Of a stretch of DNA of 64,000 nucleotides, positions 5,385 to 8,122 are shown piece after piece. How positions within the stretch are numbered: position 1 is the first letter of the stretch; each line of letters begins with the position of its first letter. A model generated the notes under the pieces. The model ran no database searches. It was not told where the DNA came from and worked only from the letters and a program-made list of their open reading frames with translations. The position numbers and the translations under genes were made by a program. Location of the stretch: positions 84,984-148,983 of the forward strand of contig CAVRFW010000012.1 of NCBI GenBank assembly GCA_963720565.1, given 5' to 3'. The DNA comes from Candidatus Bathyarchaeota archaeon. Its GTDB lineage: Archaea; Thermoproteota; Bathyarchaeia; Bathyarchaeales; Bathycorpusculaceae.

Positions 5385-5581
5385 CGATAAATCTGATCTC
5401 AGCAGCTCTAAAAAGCGTTCTTGTAAAGGTTTCTTGACTAAAACCAGATTTTGTCAGTCAAAATTTCTTGACTAAGCACCCCTGAACGCTCGATTGTCAA
5501 TCAATAGGTCTTGGGCACGCATGACTAAACGCTTTCGTAAACGAGAGCGAGATCATATCTTGATGGAGACATTCTAAGCGC

Positions 5582-5945
5582 TCACGTGCTGTTGACTGCT
5601 GCCTTGAAGTTGTAAGATCCAATAGCTGTAATTGTGTATGTTGCACGCGCAATTCCCCCGCGATTAGTTTTCTGGGTCGCAAAATGAGTCCACTCACCGC
5701 CATTGAGTGAATAGAAGAATGCGATGTCTGATTCCGTCTCCGACAGAGTTACCGTTGATTCTGACTCTGGCTGTCAAAGAAACCTCACCGTTTCGGACCG
5801 AGGAAGATAGAGTAATTGTGAACTGCATATCTACGTGCACTACGTTGCTCGTAACCTGGAACATGCCATAAGCAGCCAAGTCGCTTCCCACTACGCAAAG
5901 CAGAAGAACAATGGCTAATAACGTTTTCATAGGCGTTTTTGGCAT
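5582..5945 (-). CDS. Small secreted Ig-like protein (frameshift ~5731)
   Basis: Signal peptide; continues in another frame as DIAFFYSLNGGEWTHFATQKTNRGGIARATYT...NST*. Confidence 0.6.
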
Positions 5946-6146: not shown

Positions 6147-6199
6147 TTCGCGCGCTGCTTTGTCCCGAAAATGGTTAAAAATGGTTATAAGTCCGATTT
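6147..6199 (+). repeat. Left inverted repeat, includes TTATAA TATA-like box
   Basis: TTCGCGCGCTG-CTTT-GTCCC-GAAAATGGTTAAAAATGGTTATAAGTCCGATTT. Confidence 0.75.
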
Positions 6200-6217
6200 G
6201 GCTAATTAGAGTCTGAA

Positions 6218-6587
6218 ATGGACTATTTTGAAAGTCGCATATTGGCCGCGCTCAAAGACGGCAAACCCCACACGTTCAGCCAAATCCAAGGACAAGTAAC
6301 CTTCAGCCACAACACCCTCCAACAGCACCTCACCCAACTCGTCGAGAAAGGCCTTGTTCTCAAAGGAGAAACACCCTCAGAAAAGCTTCGGAAGACCCAA
6401 ATACGCCTACCGTGTCCCGTCCAAGACGGCTAAGCAGGTTGCGGGTGCGCTGGAAGATCCTGGTGTGGAGTTGGTGACCATGCCGTTTAGCAGGGTTAGG
6501 CATGTTTGCAGGTTTGAGAAGGGCGGCTGGTGCAAAGAGAAGAAGGCGCAGTGTTCGCCTCAAATCTGCCCCCAAATCCGAAAATAA
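6218..6587 (+). CDS. Winged-helix DNA-binding protein with C-terminal Cys4 motif (frameshift ~6365)
   Basis: FSHNTLQQHLTQLVEKGLV helix, FGRPKYAY wing, CRFEKGGWC...CSPQIC tail. Confidence 0.8.
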
Positions 6588-6630
6588 GACTTATCACCAC
6601 TTTACACCAATAAAGGGACCAGCGCGCGAA
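6582..6630 (-). repeat. Right inverted repeat, overlaps the wHTH stop codon
   Basis: Reverse complement TTCGCGCGCTG-GTCCC-TTTATTGGTGTAAAGTGGTGATAAGTCTTATTT. Confidence 0.75.
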
Positions 6631-6881
6631 AAGCAGTTGCGTAGGTAAAGGTGACTGAGTCGCCAGCTTTTATCCAGATGCCGTTTGAGAGTTGCCGGAG
6701 GGCTTTTGTTTCACCCTGAATTGTTGCTATCGTTCTTGATGTGCCGGGATGTAACGCATTAAGAGTTAGAAAAATCTTTTTCTTGGCAGGATAGATTCAC
6801 AAGGATTGGAACCATCAAGGCACACGCACGTAAGCTTAATCTGATAGAATCGAAATCTCCACTTCTAATCAGGATGACCAA

Positions 6882-8122
6882 ATGACGCTTCAAAGCAGAA
6901 TGGGGAAAGAGTTTTCGTTCATAAAAGGCAACTATGCCATACTGGTTGTAAGCTGGATCCTGATTGATTTCGCCTCAGAAATCCCAGCGACCTACTATGC
7001 CCTGTACGTTCTCAAACTGGGAGCCACTGAGACAATACTTGGAATGATCGGGCTAGGCAGGTTTCCTTGCCTTGGCTTCGATGCAATTTCCAGGGGGATA
7101 TTTGGCAGACAAGTTCGGAAGGAAATGGCTTGTTTCTTCCATGACTTTTGGAGTAGCATTATCCTACACGCTCTACGCTATTGCACCGTCATGGGTTTTC
7201 ATCCTGATCGGGGCGGTTCTGACTAACTTTTTTAACTCGATTTACCAGCCCGCTCTGATGGCGATGATTTCAGATTCTTTGCCTTCTGAGAGACGTGGAA
7301 TGGGTTTTGGCATAATCATGTTAATAACAAGCACTTCTACCACTCCAGGCCCTTGTCGCAGCCCTCCTCTACAACCAGTTCGGAATGGAGTTGGGCATGA
7401 GAATAGCGTACGGCATTGTCGTTACCCTTTTCTTATTGCTTCAGTTCTTCGATTCCGGCTCAAGGAAACCTTCATAGACACGCCTAAGCCCTCTTGGAAA
7501 GAGTTTTTCCGCTCCTATCCCACCTCGTTGAGGGAAAGTGTGAGGGTTTGGAAGAGAGTTCCAAGTTCAATGTTCTACTTGTTTCTGACCCGGAGCGATC
7601 ATGATGTTTGGAGTTGCGGCCGTGCAGATTTATCTAGTGGTTTACGCGGTGAATGTTCTTCTGTAGATGCGACGGTATGGGCATACGTCTTGCTAGCTTT
7701 GCCTATTACAATGATAGTCTTTTCAATTCCTATTGGAAAGTTTGTAGACAAAATAAACAGGAAAATGCCCATATTGGCGTCATACGGCTTCTTCTTCTTC
7801 TCGTTGCTGTTTTTCGTAAGCGGCTGGTCTGTCTCTCTGCTTTTCCTGGCCCTAGTGTTTCTTAGGAGTTGGACTCGTCATGATGAACTCTGGATCTAGC
7901 GCCCTGCAAGCTGACCTGACACCCAAAGAAAGTCGCGGAAAAGTCCAAGGTTTCTCAAGCTTCGTTAACAACATTATGATGGCGCTGGGTGCTGTCACAG
8001 GCGGATTTCTTTATGAACATTTTTCCCCTGCAATACCCTTCTATGTTTCAATGGGACTTGTCATTCCAGCCTTTCTCCTTACGCTGGCATTGGTCCATGA
8101 GCCCAAAGACAGACAAGAGTAG
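6882..8122 (+). CDS. MFS transporter (several frameshifts)
   Basis: GYLADKFGRK motif A, ERRGMGFG, GKFVDKINRK, ESRGKVQG across overlapping ORFs. Confidence 0.88.

Follow-up and report, generated by a model that had tools for sequence, protein, structure and literature searches.

The window, i.e. the whole stretch of 64,000 nucleotides that was analysed, contains a gene for a small winged-helix protein with a four-cysteine tail (wHTH-Cys4), which is enclosed by inverted repeats (Table 1). A preliminary description of this DNA had placed the repeats at positions 6147-6199 and 6582-6630, and the alignment of both copies indeed yielded 39 matches with one 4-nt gap. Its local score of 22 exceeded those of 3000 random pairs with the same geometry taken from the genome, which reached 14 at most. 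The TTATAA at 6185-6190, the ATG at 6218 and the overlap of the right repeat with the TAA at 6585-6587 were found where they had been described. The distance from the TTATAA to the ATG (27 nt) may reflect the geometry of a leaderless archaeal gene; a scan for sigma-70 promoters found no promoter, as expected in an archaeon.

The limits of the element had to be shifted slightly. The leading TTC, which had been counted as its start, belongs to the flank. Since relatives begin at GCGCGC and since element-free contigs carry the right flank from position 6628 joined to other sequence, we set the element to 6150-6627. In element-free contigs of another sample the host reading frame at the right tip (6628-6748) runs on and contains no GC tract; its continuation is absent at the left flank. 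Contigs of four other samples showed loose ends located exactly at the element tips. A clear target duplication was not found at the cassette, as had been stated before. By comparison with an intact copy of 89% identity, the 4-nt gap proved to be a deletion in the right end of the window copy; intact copies with the same outer ends (type A) mostly measure 481 bp (17/25). With its frameshift (see below) and its shortened right end, the window copy may be dead.

Table 1. Positions of the cassette and its parts in the window
Feature	Position	Strand	Remarks
Whole non-autonomous cassette	6150..6627	+	478 bp here; most intact type-A relatives 481 bp
Left outer terminal repeat, type A	6150..6172	+	Common to 1.1-1.3 kb DUF772/DDE IS; begins with the GCGCGC tip
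Left inner repeat	6173..6199	+	TGG units 10 bp apart; cassette-specific; overlaps promoter; putative binding site of the encoded protein
TATA-box-like TTATAA	6185..6190	+	27 nt upstream of ATG; relatives have a TATA-like box at the corresponding position
wHTH-Cys4 gene	6218..6587	+	122 aa in relatives; C-x7-C-x6-C-x4-C tail; broken here by one extra base near 6365
Right inner repeat	6582..6608	-	Overlaps stop codon
Right outer terminal repeat, type A	6609..6627	-	Lacks 4 bp present in intact copies; loose ends in other samples include full-length right ends
Host reading frame cut at the right tip of the cassette	6628..6748	-	Context, outside the element

The predicted protein of about 120 aa with a winged helix and a four-cysteine tail was recovered in relatives, where it comprises 122 aa, but not in the window copy, which is not one open frame. 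Here, the gene consists of two ORFs (71 and 77 aa) split by an extra base near 6365. This is likely an error of the assembly, since the base is missing from the contig of another sample and the flanking genes exhibit single-base indels not seen in relatives from three runs. Genes of the window, among them those at 6882-8122 and 5694-5945, are split by such indels (e.g., at 7056 and 5729), which do not occur in relatives; the assembly looks indel-prone.

On the N-terminal piece of the window protein the family HTH_20 scored above its cut-off. The family scan gave HTH families only, in line with the earlier statement that a transposase catalytic domain is lacking, and no gene other than that of 122 aa fits inside the 481 bp. 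Structure prediction supported the winged helix with high confidence (pLDDT about 90), while the cysteine tail was less certain (pLDDT 54-66). Fold matches of the predicted model were regulators of the MarR/ArsR type. The best family matches were likewise generic regulators (Lrs14, Sta1, ArsR/SmtB), all of them under the cut-off; for Lrs14/Sta1 membership, 50 and 46 bits were obtained against the models NF040939 (90 bits) and NF053606 (80 bits). None of the Pfam families matched the C-x7-C-x6-C-x4-C tail, which probably binds metal.

The protein searches returned 417 clusters with E ≤ 0.001. Among the matches listed, 109 of 120 clusters had a length of exactly 122 aa and 111 of 120 had kept the cysteine pattern. 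The dN/dS ratios indicate that the gene is under purifying selection, with a median of 0.20 and a range of 0.08 to 0.31 for 105 pairs of 15 genes, all of which were intact, high-scoring and 366 nt long. Longer or fused forms were not detected among 98 candidates, which is weak evidence; among the best 150 matches of a profile search, those with at least 500 aa matched only the HTH part, in many stretches.

Close relatives are labelled Bathyarchaeia. The gene has a patchy distribution within this class (30/401 genomes); beyond it, one true case was encountered among 201 genomes drawn from the phylum, and one Nitrososphaerales record also has the gene. A further candidate (L530) was dropped as it encodes a generic wHTH protein without the Cys4 tail or repeats. 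Searching plasmids gave no match. Viral contigs disclosed one cassette, and out of 15 matches to the end pattern in them two look real, while the rest resemble chance hits. The cassette in the viral collection (L062, 9933-10391) has different ends and a 7-bp direct repeat, and possibly represents a route of transfer.

The source genome harbors three full copies (contigs C12, C8 and C13) that differ in their flanks and have inverted repeats of their own, together with several truncated copies and solo ends. Many copies lie at unrelated sites, all 25 type-A cassettes exhibiting distinct flanks on both sides. This dispersal supports the view of a minimal mobile unit that is moved in trans. Instead of a single-copy gene in conserved synteny without repeats, inverted repeats were present at 55 of 59 full-length loci for which both flanks were available (lenient BLAST threshold). 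An empty site was sought by comparing the flanks with the collected loci, where the sole non-self match was false, being a truncated piece of an IS110 that adjoins a separate gene; three further searches in relatives gave no usable two-sided junction. According to the sequence comparisons, Bathyarchaeia harbor the element as a mobile insertion cassette that is non-autonomous.

The first 23 nt of the window element matched the ends of 34 autonomous IS at a median of 19 of 23 positions, the following 23 nt at six of 23. We detected the type-A outer pattern in 35 of 401 genomes. Sixty-two elements with paired type-A ends were found; 17 of them carry a transposase, 29 match the wHTH gene and 16 contain neither, and 15 of the 17 transposase-bearing elements are 1100-1303 bp long. 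The type-A transposase, which was covered by the Pfam scan, combines DUF772 and DDE_Tnp_1 in one ORF (L105), both above the cut-off. Helper transposases comprise some 330-355 aa. Three intact enzymes, belonging to the end types A, C and D, reached 85, 145 and 133 bits with the IS1182 model NF033551 (488 aa; cut-off 270), and among the IS5 equivalogs the best one, NF033581, gave 76-107 bits (cut-off 140). As neither the IS1182 nor the IS5 cut-off was reached, we call the helper elements IS1182/IS5-like and unclassified.

Each of the end types B, C and D also bounds transposases, which are 30-44% identical to that of type A. The type-E end belongs to an IS5 element of 805 bp, whose C-terminal ORF reached 115.4 bits with NF033580 (cut-off 110); this element and miniatures of it have undergone a burst in the genome G056 with 99 end matches. 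A cassette and matching IS ends coexist in the same genome for type A (G135), B (source genome and G399), C (G383), D (G095) and E (G056). The source genome itself retains only a remnant of a type-A IS on C4, about 100 bp long and 84% identical over 25 aa, together with a broken type-B IS on C9, which belongs to a related subfamily and has the same ends as the cassette on C8. A type-C transposase was not found in this genome (88.8% complete) despite the presence of a type-C cassette. Thus far, a link to an IS was seen for the outer types A to E; the types F, G, H and that of locus L529 were not tied to an IS, the search having covered type G, for which none was found in five genomes.

From the shared ends and the distinct flanks of all type-A cassettes we infer that a cognate DDE transposase very probably moves the cassette in trans. 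Two cassettes with mixed D/B ends (L018 and L310) count against a strictly cognate enzyme, which should not move them; possibly they are intermediates of an end exchange. In addition to the cassettes, other composite structures were noticed. A 2058-bp element with type-A-like IS ends (L099, 1895-3952) lacks a transposase and contains two ORFs resembling, by eye, a radical SAM protein and a chelatase-like protein; it represents a conventional cargo cassette of the same IS. At another locus the right tip of a B-ended gene-less element (L314, 1254-2153) overlaps the left tip of a D-ended cassette, an arrangement indicating that elements insert at each other's tips. Moreover, a different repeated segment (G000, C13:64876 and C9:330311-330465) starts at a type-C-like end or a GC tract, and the copy on C9 adjoins a truncated cassette.

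Inside the outer ends lies a second layer of about 27 bp composed of two or three direct repeats, most commonly with a unit spacing of 10 nt. The tested pattern, which covers the TGG type of this repeat, was present at 56 of 58 ends of type-A cassettes and at 21 of 32 ends of gene-less elements, but at none of 52 ends of autonomous IS. In the source genome, all eight matches of the strict inner motif fell on element ends. The gene-less derivatives range from 132 to 628 bp. Since gene-less elements with inner repeats also spread, the gene is not needed in cis. Three nearly identical gene-less elements of 392 bp with outer and inner repeats (L143, L151 and L157 in G135) point to a recent spread without the gene.

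To trace the two layers, a tree was built of 52 of 79 matching proteins, leaving out frameshifted (including the copies of the source genome), partial and duplicate rows. It required nine changes of the outer type versus one of the inner type. One copy with B ends lies within a group of A-ended ones (support 98/89), and D ends occur with both inner types. A single clade of the B rows was rejected (AU test, p 8e-126), this group having been named after the tree was seen. The comparison of ends and proteins shows the outer tips to be exchangeable, the gene and its inner repeats having moved, as sequences and tree demonstrate, to the ends of four IS subfamilies that are related and of one IS5 element that is not.

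The inner type corresponds to the recognition helix of the protein: all 41 rows with TGG repeats have a SHNT-like helix and all 11 rows with AGA repeats ARST/ARQT-like helices. A locus found later in another class again combined ARST with AGA under a new outer end. As the match between helix and repeat rests on one change in the tree, shared descent explains it equally well. The joint change of helix and repeat lends indirect support to the earlier idea of a protein that binds its own ends. We consider it likely that the wHTH-Cys4 protein occupies the inner repeats on either side and acts as a repressor of its own promoter.

Our data on the junctions indicate that GCGCGC is the tip of the element and not a duplicated target. 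Outside of this hexamer, a repeat of at least 4 bp was observed in none of 61 type-A elements and one of 2 bp in 13; a TA target duplication was rejected on this count (13/61 only). A 2-bp GC duplication inside the tip is possible. In one case, six additional base pairs were seen at an AGCT site, and GC directly adjoins the tip on its outer side at about 47 of 123 type-A ends. One type-F cassette exhibited a 7-bp direct repeat. Where relatives could be aligned, about 4.5-5 kb had given way to a cassette and 420 bp of a gene to an IS, and no tract was present at the junctions of the relatives.

GC runs also occur apart from complete elements. In the source genome, 55 of 77 runs of at least four GC units lie outside long ORFs, compared to 8-13% for six control hexamers and a background of 18%. 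A strict 12-bp palindrome was found in 14-67 copies in 18 of 401 genomes (G364, G081, G089, G095 and 14 more), in two copies in the source genome, and not at all in 274 genomes. We inspected 26 tracts of G364. Eleven of them were bracketed by alignments in G355, which has the tract at none of these places, with size differences from -394 to +9; of seven bracketed in G412, two have a tract somewhere in a long unaligned gap. One G364 tract marks the loss of 83 bp present in both other genomes. Since the tracts are absent at their counterparts in G355, they look like derived scars at small deletions, and such scars may be used anew. The window contains 18 GCGCGC sites between 6149 and 61107, two of which are the cassette tips, while the remaining ones are free. 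One 6-bp GCGCGC within a gene, shared with two of three relatives, was read as chance coding sequence. Unrelated to the cassette, a repeat of about 70 bp with internal inverted arms lies at 5406-5480; it has 15 matches in the source genome, clustered on C7, and many in relatives.

A relation between the element and the intergenic GCGCGC motif had been suggested in the preliminary description. This suggestion found support at the level of single loci: the free tracts match the element tip along with its WA/TW flank bias, and truncated cassette and IS copies end in GC runs whereas their intact siblings have none there. At the genome level the association was weak. The transposase was detected in five of 18 tract-rich versus two of 18 tract-free genomes, the single-contig genome G081 possesses 63 strict tracts and no matching transposase, and several IS-bearing genomes are devoid of any strict free tract. 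A connection between the (GC)n tracts and the GCGCGC-tipped IS is only partly supported. The genome-level figures would fit free tracts that arose as filler when a host repair pathway acted on deletion junctions, with no relation to this IS group, an origin which the match of tip and flank bias and the truncated copies speak against, and to which we give some weight without preferring it. The hexamer, being a palindrome, might also be taken for the crossover core of an invertible or excisable unit that a recombinase, the mover proposed initially, drives into intergenic GCGCGC tracts as landing sites. The GC just outside many type-A tips, by which elements may land in or extend tracts, and the head-to-tail order of ends at some loci agree with this. 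However, it is DDE insertion sequences that share the outer ends, relatives show no tract at the junctions of two elements and at the right junction of the window cassette, and cassettes with IS5-type and other ends carry no GCGCGC at all. The flanks differ at every copy, and both orientations, as expected of an invertible unit, were not seen: four assemblies contained no strand-switch joint, a weak argument given that they consist of contigs. We regard the recombinase as largely refuted and as very improbable.

The remaining explanations concern the function of the protein. Overall, the findings are probably best explained by a cassette with two-layer ends, which is moved in trans by a cognate DDE transposase and whose own protein occupies the inner repeats. 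If the gene were instead an ordinary passenger encoding a metal- or redox-sensing regulator of the host, the inner repeats would merely be its promoter and operator, without a role in transposition. The generic regulators among the family matches (below cut-off), the MarR/ArsR folds and the overlap of the left inner repeat with the TATA box would suit such a regulator, and purifying selection would fit a benefit for the host. It is unlikely, though, in view of the inner repeat having been kept at the 3' end too through at least nine changes of the outer ends, and of its presence at ends of gene-less elements; as the strict motif occurs only at element ends in the source genome, no host regulon with that site was seen there. 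We are similarly sceptical of an adaptor comparable to ORF1 of PIF/Harbinger, where the protein on the inner repeats would recruit or bridge the transposase and give the cassette priority over the IS. Repeats resembling binding sites do abut the transposase site at a fixed spacing at both ends, and PMC2836001, in the part available, offers a precedent for the separation of binding and catalysis. Yet the same core is combined with transposases which share only 30-44% identity with that of type A and with an unrelated IS5 element, contrary to a specific protein contact, and the autonomous IS have their own DUF772 domain and no inner repeats.

For the two-layer cassette, we propose that the transposase of a co-circulating DDE IS cuts and moves it in trans by way of the outer 23 bp. 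The winged-helix protein would bind the inner repeats, which are spaced by one helical turn and overlie the TATA box on the left side and the stop codon on the right, and would thereby repress its own promoter. Bound in this manner, it would be situated right beside both transposase sites. The protein might tune how often the transposase engages the cassette for transposition or excision, whether by helping or by shielding it; on this part we are close to undecided and lean slightly against it. The gene and the inner repeats would form the heritable core, whereas the outer tips are replaceable, possibly through recombination between the inner repeats of neighbouring elements. Gene-less miniatures that keep the inner repeats would ride on both proteins. 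In the GCGCGC-tipped group, insertions are located at deletion junctions and lack a clear target duplication as far as the comparisons go, and loss of an element may leave a (GC)n scar. More tentatively, the family can be pictured as a hyperparasite of insertion sequences with a fixed core and an accessory transposition factor of its own, which exchanges only its outer 15-23 bp when passing from one IS family to another. Its helper with GCGCGC tips would then represent an IS group, so far unclassified, which takes the place of host DNA and leaves (GC)n scars behind in certain genomes of Bathyarchaeia.

By its anatomy, the element belongs to the mobile insertion cassettes: two inverted repeats of IS type surround a coding sequence, a transposase gene is lacking, and, for the types A to E, the ends are common to autonomous IS. 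In the literature searched, whose scope left most subscription journals and ISfinder outside, we did not find a description of this cassette, and it is probably an undescribed variant. In the same sources we found no account of GCGCGC tips or of possible (GC)n scars either. More than 400 protein clusters annotated as ArsR-type regulators would be reassigned to mobile DNA, and the results draw attention to an IS group, as yet unclassified, that is associated with the truncation of genes by deletions in Bathyarchaeia. The family would also offer a small natural system for studying the role of a non-catalytic DNA-binding protein beside a transposase site and the acquisition of new ends by non-autonomous elements.

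The helper IS has the domain make-up of DDE elements of the IS1182/IS5 type (DUF772 and DDE_Tnp_1), from which it differs by scores below the cut-offs of both models. IS1272 is placed in IS1182. According to the accessible part of PMC5678879, this element creates no target duplication and replaces target DNA, and deletion junctions at which IS copies are present without a duplication are on record in what is available of PMC11708052. In its N-terminal winged-helix fold the cassette protein resembles the regulators Lrs14/Sta1, ArsR and MarR; it departs from Lrs14/Sta1 by scores below both cut-offs and by a cysteine tail that has no Pfam family and low model confidence (pLDDT 54-66). With ORF1 of PIF/Harbinger, a Myb-like protein also connected with Tourist MITEs, it has in common that a separate small DNA-binding protein is associated with the element ends (PMC2836001, as far as accessible). 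That ORF1 is encoded by the autonomous element and needed by it, whereas the wHTH-Cys4 gene resides on a non-autonomous element, the IS lacks the sites of the protein, and the fold is a winged helix with Cys4, so that the likeness is an analogy only.

Like archaeal and bacterial MITEs, as presented in the available text of PMC10969869, the cassettes are small and non-autonomous and have terminal inverted repeats. The gene-less derivatives of 132-628 bp are plain MITEs; the cassette differs from MITEs in that it encodes a conserved protein, subject to purifying selection, and has a further layer of repeats independent of the IS. A close counterpart in build is MIC231 of the IS231 group (IS4 family) in the Bacillus cereus group, where, according to the accessible portion of PMC6199540, IS inverted repeats enclose a coding sequence without a transposase gene and a related IS moves the cassette in trans. 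The term mobile insertion cassette is also used in PMC3129680 and PMC2266710, to judge from the parts available. The window family shares with MIC231 the two IS inverted repeats, the coding sequence inside and the missing transposase gene. MIC231, as portrayed in that portion, has the ends of one IS group and a variable passenger in 700 bp to 3 kb, whereas the window family has a constant passenger plus inner repeats in about 480 bp, an archaeal host, and IS ends that vary even across IS families. Known cassettes thus keep the ends of one IS and change their cargo, whereas the family described here keeps its cargo and changes its IS ends, which suggests that the cargo serves the element itself.
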